IMG/VR virus record: IMGVR_UViG_3300028364_000013 | DNA: 64,000 nt | Reading direction: 5' to 3' (one strand) | Source of the DNA: a virus | Lineage: Duplodnaviria > Caudoviricetes | Part shown: piece by piece, positions 3,982 to 44,967 of the stretch | Numbering within the stretch: the first letter of the stretch is position 1 | How the letters are laid out: every line of letters begins with the position of its first letter | Notes under the pieces: generated by a model | The model's input: only the letters and a program-made list of their open reading frames with translations | What the model was told of the DNA's origin: nothing | Databases searched by the model: none | Translations under genes and position numbers: made by a program

Positions 3982-5259
3982 TTAGTTATTAAGTTCAACA
4001 ATGTAAGCAATCGTGCATCTCTTTGATTCATAGACAATAATCTCATCATTATACAAAGAGCTTCCAGCGTGTGCGAAAGTACAATCGTAATCACCTTTGC
4101 TATCAAGTTTGCTTTGACAAAGACTTGAGTCTGATGAAGTTACATCATATTGTCTTCCTATGTGTACATCAAACAAAGCCAAGTATCCTTTATTGTCATT
4201 TCCTCTTGCCCAGTAAGAGCCAGAAAGAGATGAATATCCAATAGACTTCTGTGCTTTGTTGGAAAAGTAAATACCATCACCAAACATTGACCCTGTGTGT
4301 TGAACACCAGATGGACGAATAAGAAGTCCAGTCTGAATAATGTTAAACCAGTTCTCATTTCTTGAACCGTGCCACAATAGCAATCTATTTTTTAAATTGG
4401 CATTGGCATAGTGTGCATCAAACTTTGCTTGAGTTGATTTATTTACACACTTGAACAGTCTGCTTAATTGATTTGCGTTATTTCCAAGCAATTTCTTTAC
4501 AAGAGCAATTGCTTTTGGGTCTTTCTCTTCTGTAACTTCAAGCCCCATCTTATCAAGAAGGTCTGGCGCTGCTTTGACTTCATCCTCTTCTTCCTCATCT
4601 TCATCAGATGCGTTTTGAGTAATCATTGCCACCTGACCAGCCATTGTATCAAGAATAGACTGCTCATTGGCAATGAAGTCTTTCATTTCTTCAATGGTGT
4701 AATCATCTTCATTTAGCAAGAAGTCTTTAACGTTGCTCATCTTTCTTGGGATGGTAGCATAAAGTTCCAATAATTTTTCATTTATTGGCTCTATCTTATT
4801 TGCCTTGGTAGAATTGTTTCTCACAATTACTGCGGCAGCATCAATGATTGCTTGTGCGTTGTCAACCTGCTTCTGTGTTACATCTTCTTGTGTAATCTTA
4901 TAGTTGGCACCAATGGACTTGTTTGCGTATGCCATAAGGTCATCAAACAATGCTTGCACCTCTGCTTCAGAGATATTTACAATTCCAGTAGATTTTTGTG
5001 CTTGCTTAATTACAGCTTCATCAGTCTTGTCTACATAACCTTTTCGAGCTGAAGTCTTTTGGTTATATGTAGCATTCCACTTAGATGAAGATTTAACATC
5101 AACAGCCATTTTTGTACCAATCCTTCCATAGGTACATCTAATTGTTCCATTGGATTGCTCTTCCATTATGTAGACTTTGTTGGACTGACTTGTCTTTCCG
5201 TTGTCTACACTAACATGTATTAGTTTGGCATATCTCAGCCCGTCCTCTTTTGTTATCAT
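3982..5259 (-). CDS. Poly(ADP-ribose) polymerase-like protein (WGR + regulatory + catalytic domains)
   Basis: WGR-like TYGRIG; catalytic LLWHGSR, GSMFGDGIYF, AQKSIGY and YNDEIIVY (H-Y-E triad). Confidence 0.9.
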   Translation of the reverse strand: MITKEDGLRYAKLIHVSVDNGKTSQSNKVYIMEEQSNGTIRCTYGRIGTKMAVDVKSSSKWNATYNQKTSARKGYVDKTDEAVIKQAQKSTGIVNISEAEVQALFDDLMAYANKSIGANYKITQEDVTQKQVDNAQAIIDAAAVIVRNNSTKANKIEPINEKLLELYATIPRKMSNVKDFLLNEDDYTIEEMKDFIANEQSILDTMAGQVAMITQNASDEDEEEEDEVKAAPDLLDKMGLEVTEEKDPKAIALVKKLLGNNANQLSRLFKCVNKSTQAKFDAHYANANLKNRLLLWHGSRNENWFNIIQTGLLIRPSGVQHTGSMFGDGIYFSNKAQKSIGYSSLSGSYWARGNDNKGYLALFDVHIGRQYDVTSSDSSLCQSKLDSKGDYDCTFAHAGSSLYNDEIIVYESKRCTIAYIVELNN

Positions 5260-31214: not shown

Positions 31215-32219
31215 TCATTTAAACTTTTTTGCAACATATTCTGCAACTTCTTTCATAGAGTGGTAAATAGGTATATCTCTTTTTTCAGCCATCATATGCA
31301 TATATCTCATCTTTTCTGCGTTTTTCGGATAACTTAATACACACTTCCCGCTATTAGCCCAATATCCAAATTCTATATTGGTTGTGAAACCTGGCATTGA
31401 GTCCAATTTCCTTGGAACCCAGAACAAAATTAGGTCGGATGCATTTAAAGCTCTCTCCTCCCATACAACTTGAGTGTCATAATCATACCCATCTTCTGGG
31501 TTTTCTTTCTCTGGCATCAAAATATGACCTTCATAACCTGCTTCTCTAAGTTTCTTAACCATAAGAGGTCTCCAAGTCTTAACATCAAGCTCACGAGGTG
31601 TTGGTCCTGCTAAAAACACTTTATCTCCTAAAGGAGGAATCATATCTGTAGCATACACATCAGCACCCTCAATCAAGTTAAGGTTTGCTGGAAGTTCTCC
31701 AGCAAATACATGCTTGTCATAAAACTTTCTGATTGCGTTCATGCAAAATATTAACTCATCTTCTGACACTGGAAGGAAGTTCCAAGCATCACATCCAACA
31801 TTAACCATATTTCTTTGAACTTTCCACAATCCGTGGATATGTCCAACAATGTTAAATTTATTTGCTACAGCTTTTCCTGGATAATGGTTTAAGTGAACCA
31901 TTTCTCCGTTTTTAAGCTTAAGGTCTGCGTTTACAACTACAGTTGCAAATAGTTTATTAAGCTTTGCCATTGGCCTTGGGTCATCGTAATTTCCCATTAC
32001 CAGATGTATTTTTCCATTAAGCCTCTCTACAACATCAAGACCTTTGTTTGTTGTTGCAAAGTCTCCAAGATGAAACACTTCATCGTTTGGGCCAACTACA
32101 GAGTTCCACTTTTCAACAAGATAATCCTCTTGTTCCTGTACTGTTTTAAATGGTCTATAAAATAGATTAAATCTATCATCACCATAATGAGAATCACTAC
32201 TGAAGAATCTTTTTTTCAT
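31215..32219 (-). CDS. Calcineurin-like metallophosphoesterase fused to a nucleoside 2-deoxyribosyltransferase-like domain
   Basis: SDSHYG, HLGDF, GNYD, LNHYP and GHIH motifs; C-terminal VFLAGPTP...WEERAL...FWVPR...TTNIEFG. Confidence 0.85.
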   Translation of the reverse strand: MKKRFFSSDSHYGDDRFNLFYRPFKTVQEQEDYLVEKWNSVVGPNDEVFHLGDFATTNKGLDVVERLNGKIHLVMGNYDDPRPMAKLNKLFATVVVNADLKLKNGEMVHLNHYPGKAVANKFNIVGHIHGLWKVQRNMVNVGCDAWNFLPVSEDELIFCMNAIRKFYDKHVFAGELPANLNLIEGADVYATDMIPPLGDKVFLAGPTPRELDVKTWRPLMVKKLREAGYEGHILMPEKENPEDGYDYDTQVVWEERALNASDLILFWVPRKLDSMPGFTTNIEFGYWANSGKCVLSYPKNAEKMRYMHMMAEKRDIPIYHSMKEVAEYVAKKFK

Positions 32220-32240: not shown

Positions 32241-35200
32241 TTAATCTTTCCAACTTCCTTCAGGCAAATCCATAAGCTGAAGATGTGTGTCTTCAAATCT
32301 AACATATTTATTTGGAGTTTCACCACTAATTAATTTTGGTTTAATTTCAACAACAATTATCCACCACATCCAAAAACAACGATTTACTTTTGGCATATAA
32401 TGTGACTTACAATTTACGTATTTGAAGTCTTTTCCATTTTCAACACTCCAGTAACAACTTTTAAAAGCTTCCCAATAAGGTTTTCTTCTAAATTTAGAAC
32501 CTTTTGGTTTTTTTGAAATTCGTATTGAAATATTTTCGTTATTTACTAAATTCATATCTAATTATTTTCTAAACCAATAAATATTACCATCAGACATAGC
32601 ATCGCCCCAATTGATGTAATCATCTCTCATTCCTTCATTAAAATCTTCTTTGTCCATATCATCCCAATCTGGGTCTGGAGCTGTATGATTAGTTTTTCTT
32701 CTTTCATACTCTTTCCACCACTCTTTTTTTGAAAACCCTGTTGTATAATCAGGAATAATTCCAATCTCCCAACCACAAGACTTAACATCAACAGTAGCAG
32801 GAAGTCCATACCAACAAATTTTTCTACCCTGTTCTGATTGTGGGTCAAGAAAATTATATACATGTTCACAAAGAACTACTTTAAGATACTCAGCTTTTGA
32901 CATTGCAAATGACATACCTCCATCTCCACCTGTTGTTCCAAAAGAGTATACAAGTATTCCATTGCACCACATTTCACAAGAAGTTCTTCCACTAAATCTA
33001 AGTTCATCCCATTTAACTTTAGAATTAGTTCTTTGCTTAAATCTAATATCCCAAGATAACCTTTCTATACTTGATGACCATGCTTTAAAATGCTCACTAT
33101 CTTCTGGCGGAATTAAATCAACTGGAAGTCTGTCAGAATAATATAACCACCAATTTTTTGGCTCTCCATTGTAACCTTGATGTTCTCTTCCTTCTATGCT
33201 ATAAACATCATACTCTTTATCATGTATTAATACATGAAAAATTTTTCTTGGTGTTCCTATGTTACTTTCTGATTCCATTTTTATTTCAATTTAATTTCCA
33301 AACTTTCTTTAAACCTAACAAGTAATTCTCCTACTAATAAATCATAATCATTATTTGGTTCAGCTGGAACATTTCGGGAAGGTATTTTTCCTTTTATGTA
33401 CATATTGTCAGTAGCTGTATCTACAGCTTCGATTAACTCTTCATCAGTTAATGTGCATTTTCTAAATGATACTATCGAATTCATATTTTTATTTTTTAAA
33501 ACTTCCAAAATTTACTATCATTTTTTCCAATGATTTACTTATCTCTTTTTTTGATTTACACAAATGTTCAATCATCTCATAAGGACTTCCGCCTCTTGAA
33601 ATTGATTCGAATATCGTTCTGAATTCTGCATCGAACATGAACTCTTTAATAAAATCTGGTGTAAATTCTTTTTCTAAATCCTCCTTACTTATTCTTTTAT
33701 GGTTTTTATTAAAAGAATCCTTCCAACTAAATCTACAATCAGTATCTCTACAAATCCACTCCACATCAACTGGGTCATGTGATTTATCAAAATTGTTACA
33801 CTTAGGACATGTTTCTGCTGTGATATTTGGTTTGGTATTTTTTTCTAATAAGATACCATCAATAGAAAGCCAGTCTTTTTGACAAACATTATGAATTCCA
33901 CCAGAATAATCACCTTCTAACTCTACTTGGTTTTTTCTAATCCCAACCACCTTCATCATTTCTCTACCTTGATATAAATCAGTGTGATATACTTTTTGCC
34001 CTAATTCTAATTTCATTTTTATAAATTTATAAATCATTCATTTCTATGAATAATTCTATTTTTCTTCTAACCAATCTTGATGCTCCTGGTCTCCATGTTT
34101 TATTTCTTGAAATAATTCACGCATAAGTTTTGCACAATCTTTCACTGGTACATTAAGTTCTCCAGCCCATTCAATGTGGTCAGATTCCCTTGTCCCATTT
34201 TGCACCTCTTCATCAAATTTGTTTGCAACGAAAGTAGTATTCAATTTAGTGTTTAGTAAAATTGTTTTTCCTGATATTACTTTATTCATAATTATTTATT
34301 TTTCTATCCCCATACTATCAATGTGAGCAGTCGCAATATCTCCAGATTTTTTCACAGATGCTTCATGACTATTTGAATATGCATAAGCAATATCGTCAAT
34401 TTCAACATGCATTTTTTCAAATAATTCAATAAATTTTTTTAAATTATCATGTCTTTCTGGGTCACGAGAACCACAACCCAATGGTCTAATTGGCCCAACT
34501 AATTTAGTAATTACTTCGTAAATTTGTTCTGTCTCCATTTTGTTTTTTTTTAAACTTTAAACAATTACATTCTTCTTTTTTGGTTTTAACAAAAGGAATT
34601 CCTTGAGAAGTAAACTCAACTTCAAAAAATCTCCATCCAGATACCGTTCTAATCCACATAATCAGTTTATATTAAAAGTGATTCTATATTCATTTTGTGT
34701 CTATTTAAACTCTATCTCAATTACTCTTGTGTTCTTCTAAATTCCAACAGCCTTATCTTCCTTGCCTTCTTTTCTTAGCTTTTCAATTAAGTCAAGCCTA
34801 AGCTTTTCAGTATCTTCTACAGAAAGTTCTCCATGAAAATTTGTTGTTGGGAAAGCATTGTATCCAAGTTCATCACAAGGTTCAATTATTCCGACTGGCT
34901 CATCGCAGGTGCTGCAAATTGACCATATAAATACCTTTCTCATCTCCAAGCATTAAAGAAGTTAAGAGTAAGTTCTCCTACAGAACATACATCCGCATCT
35001 GATTCCTCAAAGTCATCCAACTCTTCATTATAAGCGCCCAAGTGATTTTCAAGGTCTTCCTCAAACTTATCAAGCCTGGCAGCCTTTCTTTCTAATTCGT
35101 CAAGTACTTTTGAATCAATTTCTACTTTTACCATTTTTGTCTTTTTTAATTTCAAGACAAATATAAGCAAAATTATTTCAAATCTTTAAGTTTCTTTGTA

Positions 35201-36593
35201 AAATCTTTTGACACTTTATCAGACTTAACGTTTTCATCAATTCTTTTCTGGCGAATAACATAAGCACCATAAGCTTTTTCTCCTTCAGCAAGAATTTGTT
35301 TCTTCACAGCATTTAAGTCATGAGAATAAATAACCTTAGTTTCATGTCTATCGAATTCATCAATAGCATTTTCGACTGCTGAAGAAAAAGTTCCTTTTCT
35401 CCAAACACTTCGTACATAATGCTTTTGGTCAAGAGAACTGTCTAATACATAAAACCTGTCTTCACTTGGTTTTCCTTTGGCTTCTTCGTTCTTCCATTGA
35501 GGACCTACTACAACCATATACTCAAGACCTCTTGATTCAAGGAATTGTTCTAAATTTTGAATTTTCATAATTGTTCATTTAATAAAAAGAAGAATGTCCA
35601 CAAGCGGTGCTCTCCTGATTGAATTTCTACTGTGAACTCCTGGTTGTTGTCGCTATAGCTTCCAAGAATCCATTCATCCTTAAAACCTTCACAATAGTGG
35701 TGTGAATAGTCTTCCTTTCCTTCTTTATGCAATAGGCTCAAAGGGAAAATTAATGGCTTTTTAGACCATACAGAAACCTTCCAGTCGTGAAAGTTGCAAC
35801 GAGTTATTATTGTCGTTCCATCCTTAAGAACAGTCTTGTATACTGGTAACTTAGCAGACTTTGAGGTGTGTTCTGATACAGCTTCAACAGATTCTACTTT
35901 ATCATAGAAAATGCCTGTGCCCATCAAGTCACGAAAGAATACAAATTGATTTGACATGGCTTTCTTGTAAATCATGTTATCTGGAGTGTTCTCCTCGTTT
36001 CTATTGTACCAAGCCTGAATTGGTGCTCAATATGTTTTTTGTTGCCAATCTGGCAATATTGATATATCTACTGCTTCCATAATTTTATTTTTACATGCTT
36101 GCATAAATTTGAAATCCATCTCCATCATCTGAGATTTCTACTCCATAAGATATAGCTTTTTTAACATCTTCTTCTGTAAAATCCTGGAATATTTCCATAC
36201 CACTTCCTATATACATCACATCATGTTCTCCATGAAAGAAATTTCTCTCACCTTTATTCTCTGGCTTGAGTTTATCATATAAAAACATGATAGCACAAAT
36301 CTGTCTGGCCTCGTACTGAGGTTCAATCAATGGGTCTCCATATGAATGTTCTTCTTCAAACCTTTCAAACCACTCTTCTAATTGTTCTTCGTTTTCCATA
36401 ATTATCCTTTTGATGGCGTGTTAATAACCATTATTTCTACTTTCATTTCAAGAGATAGCTCTGCTTCACAATCTCCACAAATCTCCAACGTTCCATTGTA
36501 TGGTTCCTCACACAAGCTTTCTAATTCACCTGCAAGGTCATGTCCACAATTGGGACACTGAATATTCATTGTACTATAAGTTCCTATTTCCAT
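32241..36593 (-). other. Array of hypothetical CDSs (32241-32555, 32562-33278, 33281-33508, 33489-34037, 34056-34289, 34296-34538, 34737-34949, 34940-35170, 35173-35568, 35565-35975, 36091-36399, 36402-36593)
   Basis: Co-oriented abutting ORFs. Confidence 0.75.
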
Positions 36594-36770
36594 TATGCTA
36601 ACATTTTTTTAAGTTCATCAAGTGTAATAACTTCCTTTCCAAGGCCTTTTGCTTTAACAACCTTGCTGCTTCCAGAGCTTGGGTCTTTACACACAAGGTG
36701 AGTAATCTTTGCGCTTACTCCAGAAGCAATAGTTCCACCTTTATCAACAATGATGGTTTTGAGGTTTTTA
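36593..36770 (-). pseudogene. BRCT-domain remnant (C-terminus of an NAD-dependent DNA ligase)
   Basis: LKTIIVDKGGTIASGVSAKITHLVCKDPSSGSSKVVKAKGLGKEVITLDEL; the first strand of the BRCT domain is missing. Confidence 0.85.
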
Positions 36771-37232
36771 ATTATTTTTAAATTTTCTATATAAACGTGC
36801 AACATTTCCACTTGTGTGGCATCCAATTTTACCTTTGTATGTTGGCACCCCAATTTTATTCAACTCTTTCGTTATTTGCTCGTAATTCAAACCCTTTTGT
36901 TTTAATTCATCAATTATTTTAAATATCTGTAAATTTTTCTCATCTGTCAAGGAGTCAATTCTCTTTTTTTGAGCACCTTTAACCCTATGTTCGTATTTAA
37001 GGTTCTCAGGCTTACCAAGTACAACCCCTCTCTCTTTCGCTCTTTTTAACCCCTCTATTGTCAATCTTCTATGCTCTGGCCTGTTCTTTAAACCATGAAC
37101 TTTACAATGACATTTTACACAAAGAGGTATTGTTTTATTTCCACCTCTTGATTTAGGTATAACATGATGATTTTCTTCTGCTGGCTCATCACATTCAAAA
37201 CAAATATCAGTATCTATTACAATTTTCGCCAT
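36768..37232 (-). CDS. HNH endonuclease fused to resolvase/recombinase-type DNA-binding region
   Basis: CFEC...NHHVIPKSRGG..TIPLCVKCHCKVH; TIEGLKRAKERGVVLGKP. Confidence 0.8.
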   Translation of the reverse strand: MAKIVIDTDICFECDEPAEENHHVIPKSRGGNKTIPLCVKCHCKVHGLKNRPEHRRLTIEGLKRAKERGVVLGKPENLKYEHRVKGAQKKRIDSLTDEKNLQIFKIIDELKQKGLNYEQITKELNKIGVPTYKGKIGCHTSGNVARLYRKFKNN

Positions 37233-37329
37233 TAATTATTATACGAATTTAAACCAATAATGTTTCATAAAAGTATGATAAAAATATAATTTTTACTTTT
37301 TATTTACTATTTATAAGAAACAAATAAAT

Positions 37330-37482
37330 ATGGGAAGACCAAAATTAAAAGAAAAAGAAAAGAAAGCAAGACTTGGGATTACAATTTCTAAAGAATTAAA
37401 TAAACTTCTTGGTATAGAGACACCTAATAAGTCTGGGTTTATAGAGAACTTAATTCAAAAATATTTCGATGAAAAAAAATAA
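37330..37482 (+). CDS. Small ribbon-helix-helix-like protein (50 aa, below ORF-track cutoff)
   Basis: MGRPKLKEKEKKARLGITISKELNKLL...KSGFIENLI; overlaps the start of 37469; TATTTATAA upstream. Confidence 0.65.
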   Translation: MGRPKLKEKEKKARLGITISKELNKLLGIETPNKSGFIENLIQKYFDEKK

Positions 37483-38443
37483 TATAGTAAACCACATCAG
37501 CTATAACAAATTGCTTCAGGAATTTCACCCAAAAAAAAACAATGATGTTAAATTATTGGATTTTAGTCATGGAAGTCATAAAAAAGTCTGGTGGAAGTGT
37601 AGCGCTTCTTATGACCACGAGTGGGAAGCTACAATAAACCACAGAGCTCAAGGACGTGGGTGTCCATTTTGTAGCGGTAAGAAAGTTGCTGAATCAAACG
37701 CTTTGTCAACAACTCATCCAGAAATAGCAAAAGAGTGGCATCCAACAAAAAACACCTTGACACCAGACGATATAACTTTTGGTAGTGAAAAAAATATTTG
37801 GTGGAAATGCGATATTGCTGACGACCATGAATGGGAGACAACAGTTAAACATAGGTCAAGTGGAAATGGTTGCCCTTGTTGTTCTGGTTATAAAGTTGTA
37901 AACTCTAACTCTCTTACCACACAACACTCAGAATTATCAAAAGAATGGCATCCAACAAAAAATGGAGTAATAACTCCAAATGATGTATCTGGTGGTCATC
38001 GCAAAGTATGGTGGATATGTTCGCAAGATGGTAACCATCAATGGAAGGCTTCTATAAAAGATAGAATAAGAGGTAGGAGATGCCCTCATTGTCATTATCC
38101 TAAAAGCAAAGGTCACCTAAAAATAGAAAAAATACTTATTGATAATAATATTAATTTTGAAACAGAGAAAAAGTTTGATGATTGTGTGTTCAAAAGAATG
38201 CTTAGATTTGATATTTATTTACCAACCTTAAATGCTTTAGTTGAATATGATGGAAGACAACATACCAATGCAGTTGATATATTTGGAGGTAAAAAAGAAT
38301 TGGTTAAAACCCAGAAAAGAGATAAAATAAAAGATGAATATGCTAAAAATAACAATATTCATCTTTTAAGAATTTCTCACAAAGAATTCAAAAATATTGA
38401 GTCAATTGTGTTAGATTATTTGAAGGTAATTACAAACTCTTAA
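37469..38443 (+). CDS. Tandem zinc-ribbon repeats plus C-terminal PD-(D/E)XK/DUF559-like endonuclease
   Basis: Three WWKC...HEW...GCPxC repeats; LRFDIY..VEYDGRQH...KRDKIKDEYA. Confidence 0.85.
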   Translation: MKKNNIVNHISYNKLLQEFHPKKNNDVKLLDFSHGSHKKVWWKCSASYDHEWEATINHRAQGRGCPFCSGKKVAESNALSTTHPEIAKEWHPTKNTLTPDDITFGSEKNIWWKCDIADDHEWETTVKHRSSGNGCPCCSGYKVVNSNSLTTQHSELSKEWHPTKNGVITPNDVSGGHRKVWWICSQDGNHQWKASIKDRIRGRRCPHCHYPKSKGHLKIEKILIDNNINFETEKKFDDCVFKRMLRFDIYLPTLNALVEYDGRQHTNAVDIFGGKKELVKTQKRDKIKDEYAKNNNIHLLRISHKEFKNIESIVLDYLKVITNS

Positions 38444-39848
38444 CAGATTCCTCAATGATTTTTGCAGTTTCAAGTGAATCAAACTCTGTTTTGTCTTCTC
38501 TGATTTCAACAACAGATGGGTGCATTGTTGACCAATTACCATCCCTATCTTGAGATAATCCTTTACAGTTTATCTCAACAATTTTTCCCATTAATTTATC
38601 TTGATTATCAGTTACATACTGCATCATCTTTTCATCCATATTTGATGGGTTTGTTTTCAAAAATCCACAAGAACTTTCTAAACTTAGAGTAGAAATCCAT
38701 TTTTCATTTTTTGTTCCTGGAGTTCCCATTTGAAAGCCCACAATTTTAAGGTCAATGTTCATATCAAGCTTCATTTTCACTTGCCAATTAGGCTTCCCAT
38801 CTTTCCATGCCCCTTTATAATCCTTCAATATTGTACCCTCAAGACCTCTCTCAAGCGCTTCAATGAAATGCTCCATTGATTCCTTAACAGTTGTAACTTC
38901 TTTTGTCTCAACAAGCTCTATTCGAGTTGGTTGTTTATTAACAAGAATAGATTTCAATTCTTCAAAACGCTCTTTATAAGGTCTCTTTGAATTTTTATTG
39001 TAATACTCATCAACTGTGATAACATCCCAACATGTATAAACTACAGAGTCTAAAGCTTCTTGAAATGTTAAATCATCTTTTCCAAAATCAGACTTATGCT
39101 TCTTCAAAAATGCATCAATCTTTTTTTGAGTTTCAATAAGACCACGTTCATCTTCTTTAAGTTGAATGTCAACAAGAGACGAAACAATTCCATTGGCTGT
39201 TCTTCTAACTGGAACGCCTATAACTGTAAGTTCTCCATTTAATACAATTTCATCTCCAATATCAGATAACTCTTTAATAAACCTTGCATCTTTAAGTCCA
39301 TTTGGCTCTCCAGCTCTACTTACAAACTCCACTTCTCCGTCACGAACAATTGCGTTTGCATAGCGACCATCCATCTTAATTTGACTCAAGGCCACACCCT
39401 TTTTAATAATAGTCTCAACAAGTTTTTTATCATAAGACTTAGCTCCCATATAAGGAGTTTTTTCAACAAGGCCATCAATTACCTTGTTTACATTGGTTCT
39501 TCCCATTCCAATTTTTAAATCCTTTTCAATAATTCGAATAACAACATATTGGTCTTCAATATTTATTGAGCTTAGTATATGTTGAAGGTGATTTGTTGCT
39601 ACTCCTCCAGTGAATTCTCTTGATGATAATCTTGATAATTCATCAACAGCCCATCCAAGCCCTTTGTCTTCTCCAATGTATTGAAATTCTGGGATTTGTT
39701 TTATGTAGAATTTAACTCTCTTTGACATTGCTTGATATAGTACATCTTTCAATAACTCATTATCTGAGTATTTTTTAAGAATTTCAATTTTAGCATTTGT
39801 TCCTGGCTCTGCAGAAATCTCATCAAGTATTGATTTTATTGTTGTCAT
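38430..39848 (-). CDS. ATP-dependent DNA ligase (T4 gp30-like)
   Basis: QIKMDGRY (KxDG), LNGEL, CWDVI, GLEGTILK and VKMK motifs, plus C-terminal OB domain. Confidence 0.93.
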   Translation of the reverse strand: MTTIKSILDEISAEPGTNAKIEILKKYSDNELLKDVLYQAMSKRVKFYIKQIPEFQYIGEDKGLGWAVDELSRLSSREFTGGVATNHLQHILSSINIEDQYVVIRIIEKDLKIGMGRTNVNKVIDGLVEKTPYMGAKSYDKKLVETIIKKGVALSQIKMDGRYANAIVRDGEVEFVSRAGEPNGLKDARFIKELSDIGDEIVLNGELTVIGVPVRRTANGIVSSLVDIQLKEDERGLIETQKKIDAFLKKHKSDFGKDDLTFQEALDSVVYTCWDVITVDEYYNKNSKRPYKERFEELKSILVNKQPTRIELVETKEVTTVKESMEHFIEALERGLEGTILKDYKGAWKDGKPNWQVKMKLDMNIDLKIVGFQMGTPGTKNEKWISTLSLESSCGFLKTNPSNMDEKMMQYVTDNQDKLMGKIVEINCKGLSQDRDGNWSTMHPSVVEIREDKTEFDSLETAKIIEESVKSL

Positions 39849-39859
39849 AATTTTTGTTT

Positions 39860-39916
39860 TTAAGCTTCGTTAGCTTCTCTAATTTTAGAAACCAGTTCAT
39901 TTGTTGCTGTACTCAT
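39860..39916 (-). pseudogene. N-terminal stump of an NAD-dependent DNA ligase
   Basis: MSTATNELVSKIREANEA*; the stop falls at the Tyr expected in the LigA helix-1 motif (L..KI.EAN.AY). Confidence 0.7.
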
Positions 39917-39925
39917 AATTTTTAT

Positions 39926-42900
39926 TTAATGTCTGGCAGCAATGCACTGCCCAGTTGGTTTAATATCTAATTCTCCTTTATAGTTTGTGAACTCCACCAT
40001 AATTCTTCCATATTGGTCAGCAAATCCACTAACGCAACCACCCATGCTACTTGGCATATTTGAATATAATTTTAGCCTGAGCCTTTTGCTTACTATTGAT
40101 TTTCTAATCTTTTTTCTAAAGCTTCCTTTTGGTTTTTTCATTTATGCTCTTTTAAAACTTTTTAACGCTTTTTTGATTTCACTTGGAGTTGATTCCATAG
40201 ACATTCTCCAATAATCCATTCTTGGATTCATAATATTGTTATCAAATCCAACATTAAATAACCCATTAACGAAAGACATAACTTCGTCCTTTGGAATCTT
40301 TGTTCCAGTTACTTCCATGTCAGAAAAATAAGAATGCTTAACCTTTCCAGTCATGCCATCGAAACAAAATTCTGCAAGACCTTTGATTTCTTGAAATTCG
40401 TCTCTTGTAAGTTGGTATTGCTTTCCAGTGTAATCACCAGAATACATTTGACAATCTACAATTGTTCCTTCTGGAGCGTTAATTACTTTAAAGTCATTTT
40501 CATTGTAATACTTTTTATGAATCGCAACCTCAAGTGTATAATATCCATCACTCTTTATTTCTGGAAGAACTCCAAACTCCTTTGAATCTATTCGTGTTGT
40601 ACTTTCTCTTAGCTCAATCCAAATACTGTGGTGAAGAGAGTTGTATTCTCTATCGCCATCTTCAATATTTGAATCAATCTCTTCCTTGGCTTTGTCAGAA
40701 GTTTTGTTATCAATTACAATATATCCTGTTGGCATCTTGAAGTCTCTACTAACAACACAACTTTGGTCTTTAATAGAAAATTCTCCACCAATCCACGAGA
40801 AGTAATTTGAACTCCCGTTCATAAAATCTCCAATACTATCTCCAACTCTCTTAAGTTTTTTTATTGCATTAACAGCTTCTTGACTCATTCCGAGCCTTTC
40901 TGTTTCATGAAGAGTACATCCAATACTCCCACCTCCTGCTGGTGAAAAATCTTGGTCAAAATCTGAAGCTTCAAGTGTGTCAACAATAATATTGCCTTTG
41001 TATTCAGTAACAAGAACTTTTAGACCACTTACATTCTTTGGTCCATTATTCAATAAATCTGTAAGGTTTTGGATGTCACTCTCAAATAACTCCACTTGAC
41101 CTTCTGACCAAGAAAGGTCTTTCTTAGCTCCAGACTCTTTATAAAACTCAATTGTTTTTTTCTCATCATCAAGTTTCTTTTGAGTATAATCAATTGTTCC
41201 TTTGATGCTCTCTGGCGAATTTCTATCTCTCATGTCCATAAAATTTATTATAACCCCAATATGTATATGCCCTTTGAACTATATCTTGTAGCAAAGGGTT
41301 TTCTCTTAATTCGTATTCTGAATCTGTGTGAAGCGGAAGCAAATGTCTTGAAATATCTGCAACATCCTGAATTTGCTGTATGTGCTTATTGTACTTGTGT
41401 TCATCAAAAAGCAGTTCGCCTTCATCTCCTTTGATATTATTTATAACATCTTTCTCCCAATCATCAAAAGCACGAATGGCCTGTTCAAATTTATCAAAAA
41501 TCAATTTATCAAGAATGTTTTGGCTATTTTCATTAACCATTTGCTTCAACAGCCAGTATGGTTGTACTTCGAGATTTAGCCCCATTGTAAACAACTTGAG
41601 CTTGTGCTCTGGTCTACTATATTCTAATTTCTTTTCTTCCATAATAGGTTATACGAAATAATTTAAACTATGTTCTATATCTCATAGAAATTTATAGAAT
41701 ACATGTCTTCAATGTTTCTTGAATAGTTGTGCTCAGACATATAATCCAATAGAGATTGATAGTCTTTTCCAAACATTTTCTCAAATGTAAAGTTTTTAGA
41801 ATCATTACTCAAGAAGTCTTCCACTTTGAAATAACCTGGAAGCACAAGTCTTGAAACCATGTATGTTCTAATTTTAGTAGAACCATTCCAGTCATTAGCA
41901 AGCCAATCTTTTTTGTCAATCTCAGTTTTGCCACTGGAGTCTGCTTTTAGATATGGAGCAAGAACTTTTCTGTACCCATCATCCACCACATAAACAACAG
42001 CAAAGTATTCAACAAACTCATGTTCATTTTCCCAACTTTCAAGTTTTTTGTTTATTTTTCTCCACCCTAACTGGCCATTAAGTTTAGATAGTCCAGAGTC
42101 AACTTCTCTCTTGTAGCTCCACATCTCTTTATTGATTGAATCAATCTTGTTTTTAGACTCTGACTTGTATGAAATTAAATCTTCTCTAAGAGATTCAACC
42201 ATAGCTTCTAACTTATCTCTTTTGAAGAGGTTTGGAAATAATGTTTTTAAAAATCTTTTCATTTTATATTCAATTTAATCTAACAAAGATTCAATCTCAG
42301 ATAATGTAAATTTATCAGCAGCCCTCTTGAACGCTTCCATTTTATATACATCCATAAGTGTCTTAGGGATATAACCCATACTCATCTCATTCTCTACCTC
42401 TTCAAACTCTACAGTTAAATCAGCAACAGAATCTTCAAGACAGCTCACTTCATCCTGCAGCTCTTTTATTTCATCGTTCTTGTCTTCGCAAGAACTACAT
42501 TCTCCATTTAGGATTTCAAACAAAAAATCAGAATTATCCTCTAATACATTTAGAAGGTCTTCGTTGGTCTTGCAGTCATCAATTTCTTTAACGAAATCAG
42601 CTCCAGTTTTCATCACCTCCAAAGCAAATGCTTTTAGAGTCTGCTTGAATACTTTGTTTATTTCTTTGTTTTTCATATGTCGTACTTTTGTTTGTATTCC
42701 AGATACTTAATGTGTTTATTTGTCTCCATCCACCACTTGTTCCAAACGGAGTTTCTCTTTTTATAATAATGAATATTAAAATATTTGTCAGAAAATACTG
42801 GACCAAGATTATCCATAATCATAATTGAAAGCGATATTATAGTCACAAATGTTATAACAAAAAACGAAACCCCTAATGACACGTTTCCCAGAGCAACTAA

Positions 42901-43913
42901 TACTAAAGAAATTGATAAAAATGGAGATAGAATTAGTGATAAATAAATAAAGTTTGATGTCATACTTTTCCACCAAAAACCTTCTGGCTTTACTGGTGTA
43001 AGTTCTCTAATTTCTTCTTTTGACTTAATTTTAATTTTTAACTTAATGACTTCACATCTCCTGCACTCAACATAACTCTCATCTTCATCAAAAGTATAAG
43101 CCATTCTACCTTCCAGTTTTGGGTGAGGTATGACTCCAGAAATTGTATTTACTTTAAGTCCACTCTTGAAAGGTTTTAACTTATACTTCCCAATGTTTTT
43201 ATCATCGAGAGGTCTCTTCTTGCACTTTTTTCCTATATTCGCCTCAAATTGTTCTACATCCATAGTGGTTATACGATTATTATTATAAAATGTTCTTTAC
43301 TTTCTTTCATTTCTTTCATTCTGCTTGATGCCAAAGTAAGTTCCAAAAGAACCACCAAGCAAAAACAATATAACTGGCACAACATCTCCACTCAACACAG
43401 ACTTTATTCCTATTGAGAAAGAGATTAGCGTAAGTATTCCGACCCCGTTGCCAGTAAGTATGGCTGCTAACTTCTTTTTCTCAGCAGTATAAATCACATT
43501 TAATGTCCTAAGATATATGAACATAAACTGTGATAAAAACACAATTATAGCAGACCAGTATGGGTCATTTAATATGTCTTGAATTAATTCTTTCATTAAA
43601 ATTTGTAACACGAAGGAGGGTTCAATCCTTCTAAATGATTCTTATATTCAGCCATACAATCTCTATGTGCTGATTCTAAATTGTTCTTTAAATCTCTTAA
43701 AAATGACTTATACCATTCTTTATCTTCATCACTGCGAGTCCAGCTTCTTCCATTCTTAAAAAAATCCTGTAGCGCATCTTTAAGTTCTTTTGCACCCTTC
43801 TCATAAAAACCAACTCTGCACTTATACCAATTAGTATAAGAAAGACAGGTTCCTTCTTCAGATGTTATGTCTGGATACCTTTCTCTAATATCTTTAAACT
43901 CTTCGTCTGTCAT
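39926..43913 (-). other. Hypothetical CDSs (39926-40141, 40142-41239, 41223-41642, 41675-42262, 42275-42676, 42673-43263, 43596-43913)
   Basis: Co-oriented abutting ORFs. Confidence 0.75.
43297..43611 (-). CDS. Small membrane protein (DUF5698/DUF2179 N-terminal-like)
   Basis: Three hydrophobic segments; FIYLRTLNV and GGSFGTYFG. Confidence 0.55.
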   Translation of the reverse strand: MLQILMKELIQDILNDPYWSAIIVFLSQFMFIYLRTLNVIYTAEKKKLAAILTGNGVGILTLISFSIGIKSVLSGDVVPVILFLLGGSFGTYFGIKQNERNERK

Positions 43914-44052: not shown

Positions 44053-44967
44053 ATGAACAAGCCAACAACATATAAAGAAGTTCCATTTATAATTCAAGAT
44101 GGACTTATGTTTAGAGATGAAGTTCTTAACTCATTCCTTTCAGCGGATGGTGGAATTCCTTTGTCAACAATGATTGCATTAGCAGGAACTTCAGGAGCAG
44201 GTAAAACTACTCTTTGTAAGAAACTTCAAAAAGAACTTTCTCCAGACCTATTCTCTACATTCTTCTCTTTAGAGACAAGCAAAAATTCAGTTGCTCGTCA
44301 AACTAAGAGAGTTGAGACTGGAGACAACGCATTGGTTTGTGATGATAAAGATTTTCCAACATGGTCTTCATTTATGAAGTATTTATATGAAGACAAGCCA
44401 ACGATTGCATTCATTGACTCTCTTCAACATGCTGCAAAGCTTCTTTCTAAGGAGAATGGAAAATATAAGTATGATAATTATGCTCAGATTGTAGAAGACC
44501 TTTATACATGGAAAGAAGAGTGCAACACTATTGTTGTAATGATTGTTCAATTAAATGGACAAGGTAAGGTTGAAGGTCCAGAAGCTACAGTTTTTGATGT
44601 AGATGTTCCTTTAAAACTTATTGCTAACCCAAAAACTAAAGAGCGTCACTTAGAGGCTTCTAAAAATAGAAACGGTGGAACAGTTGGTAGCATTTATTAT
44701 GAATTTGTTTCTGATGATAGAATTATTCAATTCTTTGATGAAGACGAATATAAAATTGCTAAAGAAGGAGTTTCTCTTCCAGAGATGGTAACTGATACTG
44801 CATTTCAATTTGCTTCAGCATTCAAAAACCATGAAAACTACAAGTCTTTCAAAAAAGACTTCAACAAAGAAGTAAAAAAGATTTACAACGACAACAATGA
44901 TGATGCTGTAATTTGTACACAGATTGTTATGGTAATGACAAAGTTGTCTAAAGAATACTTTTCATAA
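44053..44967 (+). CDS. RadA/Sms-like RecA-fold ATPase
   Basis: LAGTSGAGKTT, FSLET, FIDSLQ and SKNRNGG (KNRFG-like) motifs. Confidence 0.75.
   Translation: MNKPTTYKEVPFIIQDGLMFRDEVLNSFLSADGGIPLSTMIALAGTSGAGKTTLCKKLQKELSPDLFSTFFSLETSKNSVARQTKRVETGDNALVCDDKDFPTWSSFMKYLYEDKPTIAFIDSLQHAAKLLSKENGKYKYDNYAQIVEDLYTWKEECNTIVVMIVQLNGQGKVEGPEATVFDVDVPLKLIANPKTKERHLEASKNRNGGTVGSIYYEFVSDDRIIQFFDEDEYKIAKEGVSLPEMVTDTAFQFASAFKNHENYKSFKKDFNKEVKKIYNDNNDDAVICTQIVMVMTKLSKEYFS

Follow-up and report, generated by a model that had tools for sequence, protein, structure and literature searches.

An ATP-dependent DNA ligase and putative homing nuclease genes between the two apparent ends of a ligA gene in a large lake phage

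In a large lake phage, about 3.1 kb of DNA holding an ATP-dependent DNA ligase and selfish nuclease genes has very probably overwritten the middle of a resident gene for an NAD-dependent DNA ligase, ligA. The locus lies in a 64,000-nucleotide stretch (the window) of G000, a 168.6-kb record that is ~72% complete. The initial annotation of the window had proposed that ligA was displaced at this one locus by a non-orthologous ATP ligase. The open reading frames, the ligA stump, the BRCT fragment and the nuclease genes are all at the coordinates it gave (Table 1), and the displacement is now strongly supported by the homology of the stump and by synteny in relatives.

Table 1. Features of the ligase locus and its conserved flanks, in window coordinates
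Feature	Position	Strand	Description
Downstream flank, 131 aa	35173..35568	-	gene directly after intact ligA in L002, L003 and L010 (70-73% identity)
3′ remnant of ligA	36593..36769	-	last 58 codons plus stop (36595-36593); C-terminal two thirds of BRCT
HNH-type nuclease, 154 aa	36768..37232	-	invertase/resolvase-like HTH tail; CxxC...HH...CxxCH motif
AT-rich spacer	37233..37329	.	between the divergent small-protein/nuclease pair and the HNH gene
Basic protein, 50 aa	37330..37482	+	overlaps start of nuclease gene; RHH-like by eye
Zinc-finger protein, 324 aa	37469..38443	+	putative free-standing homing endonuclease; three DUF4379 treble-clef zinc fingers, E 2.7e-58
T4-type ATP-dependent DNA ligase, 472 aa	38430..39848	-	intact; PF01068, E 1.2e-16
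Leader, 11 nt	39849..39859	-	AT-rich; between stump stop and ligase ATG; identical in L012
5′ stump of ligA	39860..39916	-	18 codons plus TAA; residues 1-19 of relatives' LigA
Upstream flank, 139 aa	41223..41642	-	precedes the ligase slot in ligA-type and ATP-type relatives

The two ends of ligA

The short ORF upstream of the ATP ligase reads MSTATNELVSKIREANEA from its ATG at 39916 to a TAA at 39862-39860. LigA proteins of relatives begin with M..ATTNDLVSKIREANEAY, in agreement with this stump. Over the first 19 residues of those proteins identity reaches 84% to P0010, a LigA that covers the NCBIfam LigA model from end to end (E 8e-57), and a tblastn search of a small set of relatives' loci returned the stump at E 1.4e-5. 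Homology to ligA stops after GAAGCTTA, and nucleotide alignment places the 5′ breakpoint between GAAGCTTA and the A that follows. The earlier reading that TAA stands where a Tyr codon is expected was borne out, as the last Ala is followed by TAC or TAT in four of four relatives examined and by TAA here. The ATP-ligase ATG begins 11 nt past this stop, and the intervening leader arrived with the ATP ligase and is the left edge of the inserted segment. L012, which comes from a different sample and has a ligase 92% identical to the window's, carries the same stump, and its 5′ junction is letter-identical. L226 has a decayed copy of the stump that matches at 33 of 42 nt, a score reached in none of 2000 shuffles. 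This copy contains an internal TAG, and of its ten differences from the window (nine substitutions and one 1-nt gap) nine run from G/C to A/T.

At the other end, the remnant matches the Pfam BRCT profile (E 2.7e-8) over positions 22-77 of 78 only, and is therefore N-truncated. It shares 65-78% identity with the C-terminal ends of full-length metagenomic LigA proteins of 613-624 aa, the same proteins whose N-termini agree with the stump, and E values lay between 5e-18 and 3e-12 when 5.8 billion proteins were searched. There are no frameshifts or internal stops. The remnant has no ATG, and its sole in-frame start is a TTG at 36853, within the HNH gene. Compared with intact ligA genes its dN/dS is 0.19-0.41, with differences concentrated at third codon positions, which could reflect a recent origin or selection still acting. 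Nucleotide alignment puts the 3′ breakpoint at the stop codon of the HNH gene; this stop lies exactly where ligA homology picks up again and so marks the right edge of the inserted segment. The 3′ junction is known from a single genotype, since L012 ends short of it.

Both pieces align with LigA termini, and on these alignments the 18-codon ORF (39916-39860) and the 58-codon BRCT fragment (36769-36596) are confirmed as the two ends of one ligA. The whole of G000 contains one ATP ligase, one BRCT match and no LigA adenylation domain, making the ATP ligase the sole DNA ligase gene found on this partial record. The complete genome may still hold another, intact ligA at a different place, because G000 is only ~72% complete and the exact remnant protein is also found on contigs of up to 364 kb.

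The ligase slot in relatives

The ATP ligase aligns end to end with the T4 gp30 ligase (PDB 6DT1, residues 4-460, E 4e-35), with the lysine of its KxDG motif (SQIKMDG) placed on that of the T4 enzyme. It also matches PHROG 114 (E 1e-102), and G000 has no second PF01068 match. In relatives, the same slot holds its closest homologs (69-92% identity). The initial annotation had named the ORFs of 71 and 63 aa at 39926-40141 and 36402-36593 as the flanks by which to find this slot; these are not the conserved ones. Conservation instead falls on homologs of 41223-41642, with or without 40142-41239, on the upstream side and of 35173-35568 on the downstream side. Between such flanks a full ligA was looked for and is present: L002/L003, L010 and L011 have an intact ligA downstream of the 41223-41642 homolog, and in L006-L009 the ligA slot is marked by a homolog of the ATPase at 44053-44967, further upstream. 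Identity of the flanking proteins is 45-76%. The nearest IMG/VR matches of the relatives' LigA family (27-33% identity) are mostly giant-virus bins.

In other relatives the slot is filled by the ATP ligase. L013, L157, L158 and L226 have no nuclease genes in the available adjoining DNA (the L226 contig ends within the ligase), and L161 has the 3′ part of a 91%-identical ligase with unrelated genes after it instead of nucleases. L157 is a scarless ORF-for-ORF swap to the ATP ligase, with the switch at the ORF borders and flanks that are 93-95% identical to those of ligA in L006-L009; L157 (ATP type) and L008 (NAD type) come from one sample. The ATPase gene 4 kb upstream gives a tree with two well-supported clades (100/100), each a mix of ATP-type and NAD-type phages. 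With the ligase types thus scattered over the flanking-gene tree, the slot appears to be a recurrently exchanged two-allele locus.

We propose that an ancestor would have carried a NAD-dependent ligA of ~615 aa here, as several relatives still do, and that recombination with breakpoints inside ligA would have deleted codons ~20-555. The replacing segment, now 3,090 bp, would extend from 11 nt upstream of the ATP-ligase ORF to the HNH stop codon. Sequence similarity suggests that the ligase most likely came from a related phage already carrying an ATP ligase in the equivalent slot, and NAD-type and ATP-type alleles may have been swapped repeatedly among relatives by recombination in the conserved flanks. 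We infer that the window's lineage went from ligA to the ATP ligase, because only ligA remains in pieces. One event or several would fit the present data.

Nuclease genes within the scar and routes to the replacement

The 324-aa protein has a C-terminal nuclease domain that is called "Vsr-type" in Staphylococcus phage annotations, and it matches PHROG 559, 9084 and 7140, families annotated as homing, intron-encoded or HNH endonucleases. Its gene is 67% identical at the nucleotide level to HNH/VSR/group I intron endonuclease genes of Staphylococcus phages, has two paralogs elsewhere in G000, and overlaps the 3′ end of the ligase by 14 nt with its own 3′ end. A GIY-YIG endonuclease stands at this position in L012. 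The 50-aa protein is 88% identical in L012 even though the downstream nuclease differs; profile and PDB searches gave no support for the RHH identity suggested by eye. The spacer falls in an 89%-identical block (window 37466-37108, L012 5706-6064). Profile matches of the 154-aa HNH protein are weak (HNH_5, E 0.003; PHROG HNH, 1.8e-4; PHROG DNA invertase, 5e-5; the PHROG families being 1271 and 125; NF058586, E 5e-5), and its L012 homolog has the first ~42 codons in common and is divergent afterwards. A 42% homolog in L228 is free-standing, flanked by recombinase-like and RNase H-like genes. As there is no group I intron, the nuclease genes of the window are free-standing as well.

It is quite possible, at a little short of even, that ordinary mosaic recombination produced this arrangement. 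A chance illegitimate exchange between related phages would have replaced most of ligA, and the nucleases would be later squatters, inserted afterwards in dispensable DNA with the new ligase on one side and the dead BRCT fragment on the other. The nuclease-free ATP-type relatives and the scarless L157 fit this course, the interspersed ligase type is what repeated homologous allele exchange is expected to give, and two genomes with the same 5′ junction differ in nuclease content. In addition, the set of small variable genes near the slot changes with every relative, a sign of a generally fluid region. However, later insertion would be expected to leave some ligA sequence or spacer, and none separates the ligase stop from the nuclease module or the HNH stop from the remnant. 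Breakpoints within an essential gene are also more easily explained by a break made there.

Such a break is central to the reading that the initial annotation favored, which we hold only tentatively: intronless homing with a non-homologous rescue gene, where a cut in ligA started or spread the swap. A free-standing nuclease would cut the ligA of co-infecting ligA-type phages, and the break would be resected and repaired from the cassette-bearing genome, with the ligA ends and neighboring genes as homology, thereby copying in the ATP ligase and the nuclease genes. Lacking a ligA target, the cassette genome would be immune, and it would remain viable with the essential function provided by the ATP ligase; co-infection is possible since both alleles occur in one sample. 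Three genes of nuclease families, annotated as homing or intron endonucleases and free of any group I intron, lie wholly within the scar, edge to edge with the ligase (the 14-nt overlap) and with the remnant (the HNH stop). The nuclease slot turns over, with a zinc-finger protein in the window and GIY-YIG in L012, and the HNH tail has been swapped; turnover of a slot and domain swapping are typical of mobile endonuclease genes. There is also precedent for the mechanism, as intronless homing is established for SegF, SegG and MobE of T4 (PMC2988022) and, with gene-end replacement, for the WHO elements of yeast (PMC7282813).

Against a nuclease-driven swap, no cleavage site can be inferred from the window. 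The ATP-type relatives that have no adjoining nucleases imply either exchange without a resident nuclease or rapid loss of the nucleases, and together with the scarless L157 they mean that the present distribution does not require nucleases; the unrelated genes after the L161 ligase point the same way. The 5′ junction is older than the present nuclease content, since it is common to L012 and L226 while that content differs. The nucleases may have arrived later, at an intergenic site where they are tolerated, and the nearest HNH relative found elsewhere (L228) does not adjoin a ligase. As to what might favor an ATP ligase, a role for NAD+ depletion is plausible speculation; a PARP gene is present in G000, and none was found in G001, a 63%-complete relative of the ATP-ligase type.

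Most probably the start of 18 codons and the BRCT tail of 58 are leftovers, untranslated or functionless. It is improbable that they are working parts rather than dead remains, with the short ORF loading ribosomes for the ATP ligase through the old ligA expression signals and the BRCT piece expressed, through the TTG at 36853 or by coupling, as a small protein still able to dock on a replication partner. The stump does keep its ATG and an open frame in the window and L012, with its stop 11 nt before the ligase ATG. The BRCT core (GG.IASGVSAKITHLVCKDP) is unchanged, without stop or frameshift and with dN/dS below 1, and the remnant stop shares bases with the following gene's ATG (TAATG), an arrangement like that of coupled operons. 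However, the stump is decaying in L226, with its internal stop and AT-biased changes, the remnant has neither an ATG nor the first third of the BRCT fold, and the low dN/dS may be inherited from before the replacement. A search of proteins of 35-114 aa gave no homolog from another lineage that consists of a BRCT domain alone.

Shared sequence can lead metagenome assemblers to build chimeras, and both allele types co-occur in the same habitats; a chimera of ligA-type and ATP-type populations is nevertheless so improbable that we reject it, because contigs from two other runs bridge the 5′ junction (X3, 39264-40153) and the 3′ junction (X4, 36723-36928) with 0 differences each, a separate assembly, possibly of the source run, covers the whole stretch with 0 differences, the 5′ junction recurs in L012 and the 3′ junction in ENA contig L229 (which repeats the order HNH end, BRCT remnant, 63-aa ORF), and a chimera would not yield a stop exactly at the join with a conserved 11-nt leader.

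Comparison with known systems

In large DNA viruses, an ancestral NAD ligase of inferred phage origin was displaced by ATP ligases at different times (PMC2806865). The same two enzyme families and the same NAD-to-ATP direction would apply to the window. Yutin and Koonin (2009) inferred displacement in viruses of eukaryotes from phyletic patterns and trees and described no physical trace at a locus (PMC2806865), whereas here both gene ends are in place, intact alleles occupy the relatives' slot, and the breakpoints are readable to within a few bases.

T4 likewise has free-standing GIY-YIG, HNH or similar nuclease genes beside essential DNA-metabolism genes, present or absent among relatives, and break repair there carries along flanking DNA (PMC2988022). 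The DNA co-converted in T4 is a homologous allele of the same gene (PMC2988022); in the window the cargo is an unrelated enzyme of the same function, and homing is putative. The nuclease-bearing WHO elements of Torulaspora and Lachancea (Coughlan et al. 2020) home into an essential gene, part of which is replaced at each integration with fragments stranded alongside, as in the window (PMC7282813). A WHO element carries with it a homologous 3′ end of FBA1, its own target gene, that resists cutting (PMC7282813), whereas here almost the whole gene is gone and a non-homologous ligase supplies the function; the organisms and nuclease families differ too. A nuclease inside an essential replication gene is also seen with mobE in nrdA of Aeromonas phage Aeh1 and mobA in T4 gene 60/39, where both halves are still encoded and reassemble into a working enzyme (PMC2988022). 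In the window, by contrast, the LigA catalytic body is lost and 18 + 58 codons are left.

The ATP-dependent ligase of Cellulophaga phage phi4:1 (Lightbulbvirus) is of the same family as the window's, with 52-53% amino acid identity and 68% nucleotide identity over 430 nt. However, the window shows no synteny with the phi4:1 ligase locus, which gives no hint of a displaced ligA. In phi4:1, a PARP-like gene lies two genes from the ligase.

Two ends of ligA around an ATP ligase gene

The window comes from the IMG/VR virus record G000 (168,582 b), estimated to be ~72% complete, and most genes of the region are carried on the minus strand. The features of the ligase locus are collected in the table.

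Features of the ligase locus, in window coordinates
Feature	Coordinates	Strand	Remarks
71-aa ORF	40141-39926	-	first of the series as transcribed, immediately before the stump
18-codon ORF MSTATNELVSKIREANEA, stop TAA	39916-39860	-	ligA 5′ stump
AT-rich leader, 11 nt	between stump stop and ligase start	-	
ATP-dependent DNA ligase, 472 aa	39848-38430	-	
Basic protein, 50 aa	37330-37482	+	overlaps the start of the 324-aa nuclease gene
Putative zinc-finger nuclease, 324 aa	37469-38443	+	14-nt overlap of its 3′ end with the ligase 3′ end
AT-rich spacer, 97 nt	between the 50-aa protein gene and the HNH gene		
HNH-type protein, 154 aa	37232-36768	-	
BRCT remnant, 58 codons, ends TAA	36769-36593	-	begins at the HNH stop codon, in a different frame
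Zinc-ribbon ORF, 63 aa	downstream of the remnant		ATG overlaps the remnant stop

The initial annotation had read the stump and the BRCT piece as the termini of an NAD-dependent DNA ligase (LigA), and both do align with the LigA ends of relatives. A 65-residue BRCT stretch compared with longer proteins gave 13 matches, nine of which are full-length or near-full-length NAD-dependent ligases (584-624 aa; 65-78% identity, E 5e-18 to 2e-10), while the tenth, P0013, is a more distant LigA fragment of 542 aa. Against the Pfam BRCT profile (E 2.7e-8), the remnant covers positions 22-77 of 78 only, and is thus a partial, C-terminal BRCT domain. At the other terminus, residues 1-19 of the LigA proteins P0007-P0010, the domain Ia helix (..EAN.AY..), align with the stump at up to 84% identity. 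The N-termini of P0010 (MNTATTNDLVSKIREANEAYRTG) and P0008 (MDIATTNDLVSKIREANEAYRIG) match it, so that the stump equals the first 19 residues of LigA minus one; P0010 itself aligns with the NCBIfam LigA model over its whole length (E 8e-57).

Nucleotide homology between the stump and four ligA genes extends to GAAGC(N)TA. The four relatives then have C or T, which completes a Tyr codon, and AGA, where the window has AAAACAAAAATT and then ATG; a TAA therefore stands at the position of the tyrosine codon, as had been proposed. On the 3′ side, alignment to ligA picks up again at LigA residue ~556, only a few bases from the stop of the HNH gene. With breakpoints at both ends, LigA residues ~20-555 are missing, and 3,090 bp (39859-36770) occupy their place. 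A six-frame search of the 168.6-kb record for the LigA adenylation domain (PF01653), which holds the catalytic lysine, found none, and control genomes responded to the same search, so the remnants are not a functional LigA. The record has one ATP ligase match and one BRCT match.

The ligase between the two remnants matches the nucleotidyltransferase domain PF01068 above the curated cut-off (E 1.2e-16), and PHROG 114 spans its residues 1-469. With T4 ligase (6DT1), the alignment pairs residues 4-460 with residues 22-495 (E 4e-35), placing SQIKMDG against the AQLKADG lysine motif of the 6DT1 chain and the KxDG lysine in register. The architecture is full-length, comprising N-terminal DNA-binding, adenylation and OB domains, and the predicted activity is ATP-dependent nick sealing. 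The host is probably a saline-lake bacterium of the Bacteroidota, a phylum suggested by the likeness of this ligase to that of a Cellulophaga phage. A salt-lake contig from sequencing run X7 (record 20) matches the ligase at ~93% over 518 nt (window 38644-39161); its differences crowd at 38680-38774 and its sequence is unlike the window's from 38644 on, which suggests a recombination breakpoint inside a relative's ligase gene.

The BRCT remnant is free of stops and frameshifts; it has no ATG of its own, and the initial third of the BRCT fold is missing. It differs from intact genes mostly at the third codon position (e.g. 13/7/24 by codon position against the ligA of L010), with dN/dS of 0.19-0.41 as compared to 0.13-0.32 among the intact genes. 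This pattern fits a fairly recent loss of function, such that most of the divergence would date from the functional period, and the remnant may retain some residual function. As for the stump, contig L226 has it in decayed form, whereas the window and contig L012 keep it intact. We are confident that stump and remnant are both relics. Apart from the window's product and a fragment from a contig of 503 nt, proteins of 35-114 aa included no BRCT-only remnant of another lineage.

The scar and the intact gene among relatives

The 5′ scar recurs in L012, a 6.6-kb contig from a different sample with a 92% identical ATP ligase. Upstream of the ligase it carries MDTATNDLVSKIRKANEA, a stop, and a leader and junction identical to the letter. 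Downstream, it keeps the 50-aa protein (88%), the spacer and the first ~42 HNH codons (89% nt identity); a GIY-YIG gene sits in the position of the zinc-finger nuclease, the HNH tail differs, and the contig ends before the BRCT position. In L226, a 42-nt stretch directly upstream of the start of an 85% identical ligase matches the 3′ part of the stump plus leader at 33 of 42 positions, a score reached by none of 2000 shuffles. This stretch has an in-frame TAG, and nine of its 10 differences from the window's stump (9 substitutions and one 1-nt gap) run from G/C to A/T, as expected of neutral decay in an AT-rich genome. Since the scar is present in the window, L012 and L226, the junction arose before these lineages diverged. 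In three further contigs (L013, L157 and L158), any stump-like sequence ahead of the ligase scored no better than shuffled controls, and IMG/VR searches with degenerate DNA patterns matching the BRCT core or the junction gave nothing new beyond L012. L226 and L161 both come from sample Ga0114946 and are maybe the two ends of one phage's ATP-ligase gene; in such a phage, the ligase would be preceded by a decayed stump and immediately followed by unrelated genes, with neither nucleases nor a BRCT remnant.

Logan contigs support the assembly: that of a possible source run spans the whole stretch with 0 differences, one from another run bridges the 5′ junction (39264-40153), and the 3′ junction, seen in this genotype only, is crossed by one from a third run (36723-36928). 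None of the runs listed as carrying the sequence is an RNA run. An ENA contig, L229, has the same order of HNH end, remnant and 63-aa ORF. The exact 70-aa remnant product, P0014 (window 36596-36808), is found on seven contigs, three of them of 0.2-1 Mb and the longest of 364,053 b. Given this contig, the 168.6-kb record covers only part of a genome that is probably longer than 360 kb, so a second ligA may lie elsewhere in the full genome.

Intact ligA orthologs occupy the window's genomic position on the contigs encoding the LigA proteins P0010, P0007, P0003 and P0008 (L002/L003, L006-L009, L010 and L011), which have their gene order in common with the window. Upstream, they share an opposite-strand ATPase (homolog of 44053-44967) and homologs of 43596-43913, 43297-43611, 42673-43263, 42275-42676 and 41223-41642. 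L002/L003 additionally have a homolog of 40142-41239 (76% identity) before ligA; in L002/L003 and L010, a homolog of 35173-35568 directly follows it (70-73% identity), and a deoxyribosyltransferase (homolog of 31215-32219) lies farther downstream in the relatives. The displacement in place claimed in the initial annotation is thus borne out, as relatives hold a full ligA in the slot and the stranded pieces align with its termini: in this lineage, ligA was replaced at its own locus by an ATP ligase. The small ORFs that touch the scars (39926-40141 and 36402-36593) had been taken for conserved flanks, and here the relatives disagree, as neither flanks their ligA. The 71-aa ORF has a 75% homolog at L010:6980-7189, 2.8 kb downstream of the intact ligA, which indicates that small genes have moved around the slot; the 63-aa ORF has no homolog in the relatives' ligA loci.

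Neither the 365-aa flank protein nor LigA P0010, used singly to scan IMG/VR, retrieved any relatives, and the BRCT fragment had no tblastn match among cultured phages. An IMG/VR scan with a LigA alignment, a biased sample because it used two short motifs only, returned only distant LigA genes of 27-33% identity, mostly from giant-virus bins (L078-L156), and was uninformative on synteny. The giant-virus matches bear on a published idea, that the NAD ligases of giant viruses came from phages.

The slot also holds an ATP ligase in other relatives. It lies downstream of the 41223-41642 homolog in L013 (141 kb, 81% identical), L158 (92 kb, 69%) and L226, with no nuclease genes in the available sequence adjoining the ligase and no stump or BRCT remnant detectable in L013 or L158. 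L157 has a 75% identical ATP ligase, likewise with no nuclease next to it, and in L161 unrelated genes lie downstream of the ligase. On either side of the L157 ligase, 116 nt and 251 nt match the sequence bordering intact ligA in L006-L009 at 95% and 93% identity. Alignment of L157 (1-1804) with L006 (9896-12110), and with L007-L009, places the switch at the ORF borders, a scarless exchange of ORF for ORF, and L157 and L008 come from one metagenome sample. In a tree built from few taxa for the ATPase gene that lies 4 kb upstream, both fully supported clades mix ATP and NAD types: (L013-ATP,(window-ATP, L006-NAD)) and (L158-ATP,(L002-NAD, L011-NAD)). Together with L157, this mixing indicates that the ATP allele is old in the phage group and passes from one backbone to another, with homologous recombination in the conserved flanks as the presumed route. 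A separate event is recorded by the window's scarred allele, whose breakpoints lie inside ligA.

Nuclease genes and the cause of the replacement

The 324-aa protein contains three DUF4379 treble-clef fingers and falls in PHROG 559, 9084 and 7140, annotated as homing, intron-encoded or HNH endonucleases. The 154-aa protein has a CxxC..HH..CxxCH motif and weak profile matches only; its one relative found is a 42% homolog in an unrelated phage, where the ligase is not adjacent. The GIY-YIG endonuclease of L012 scores above the cut-off of TIGR01453 (91.6 bits). The label of ribbon-helix-helix (RHH) protein earlier attached to the 50-aa protein found no support in Pfam, PHROGs, NCBIfam or PDB sequence searches. 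The C-terminal domain of the nuclease gave only spurious repeat-protein matches among PDB sequences, and single-sequence AlphaFold yielded poor models for this domain (mean pLDDT 47) and the HNH protein (40). An Rfam search of 35500-41000 at E up to 1 gave no intron match; a group I intron or other RNA family was rejected, the single match being at chance level (E 0.65). The nuclease ORFs are separate genes outside any intron or intein, and PADLOC found no meaningful match to a defence system. Two paralogs of the 324-aa nuclease (31-35% identity) lie outside the window at G000:C1:37576-38352 and G000:C1:119917-120660.

Nuclease presence and type are polymorphic among relatives, and the window and L012 carry different types. 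Between window 37330-38443 and L012:4921-5842, the 50-aa protein is 88% identical, and the nuclease gene it overlaps is zinc-finger/Vsr-type in one and GIY-YIG in the other. The neighbouring HNH gene has its DNA-binding tail swapped past ~codon 42. This looks like a fixed module of small protein plus promoter with exchangeable nucleases.

Cassettes of homing endonuclease genes (HEGs) are known to overwrite a gene and strand a stump of it; in the known cases, they carry a copy homologous to the target. WHO elements bring a homologous, cut-resistant end of the target gene, whereas the window's cassette contains no ligA-like sequence and its cargo is a non-homologous ligase. What the locus shares with WHO elements is the presence of stranded target-gene fragments, the stump and the BRCT remnant, beside the cassette.

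As to the cause, ordinary illegitimate recombination with the nucleases as later arrivals strikes us as plausible, at slightly less than even odds. Replacement driven by the nucleases, as first proposed, we hold to be possible but doubtful. The nuclease genes lie wholly within the scar, packed edge to edge, the HNH stop coincides with the right breakpoint, and the genes turn over like mobile genes and are free-standing, with no intron; the mechanism is also established elsewhere, in intronless homing with marker exclusion (PMC2988022) and in WHO elements (PMC7282813). However, relatives carry HEG-free, scarless ATP alleles, and the junction is older than the present nuclease content. The remaining weight includes a mixture of both routes. 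We also considered a fuller scenario and think it unlikely: a selfish nuclease cassette would spread among related jumbo phages by cutting the essential ligA, with an uncuttable ATP ligase as rescue, so that each homing event flips the cofactor from NAD+ to ATP, while NAD+-depleting host defences or the phage PARP would favour each type under different conditions and keep both alleles in the population.

Ligase displacement and cofactor choice

Non-orthologous gene displacement is a textbook idea that is nearly always inferred from gene presence by genome. For giant viruses of eukaryotes, phyletic patterns and trees led to the inference that ATP ligases displaced an ancestral NAD ligase derived from phages (PMC2806865). 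Here displacement can be read from the DNA, with both ends kept, breakpoints placed to a few bases, intact alleles at the site, and the scarless version present in a near-identical background. In the literature searched, an incomplete set, we found no description of a phage in which an ATP ligase had taken over the locus of ligA. What is new is that a ligase cofactor switch has left a physical trace at a single locus, that a non-homologous analog has taken the place of an essential gene whose two ends persist, and that the slot is dimorphic at the population level; this core is well supported. The NAD or ATP dependence of a phage replication enzyme can therefore switch through a single local exchange, and does so repeatedly inside one phage group. 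The locus offers testable cases for two propositions, that free-standing homing endonucleases may move functional analogs as well as alleles, and that NAD+-depleting defences may shape the cofactor choice of viral ligases. Natural pairs of ligA and ATP alleles on the same backbone, such as L157 and L006, are suited to experiments.

That an ATP ligase may be favoured under NAD+ depletion is conjectural. A survey of jumbo phages linked NAD-dependent ligases with phage NAD+ synthesis genes, ligase switching being outside its scope (PMC11662467). No NAMPT-type gene was found in G000, and no PARP in G001, the only ATP-type relative searched. The window itself encodes a 425-aa PARP-like ORF (3982-5259, minus strand) with a PF00644 catalytic domain (E 1.4e-24). 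In Cellulophaga phage phi4:1, a PARP-like gene lies two genes from the ATP ligase.
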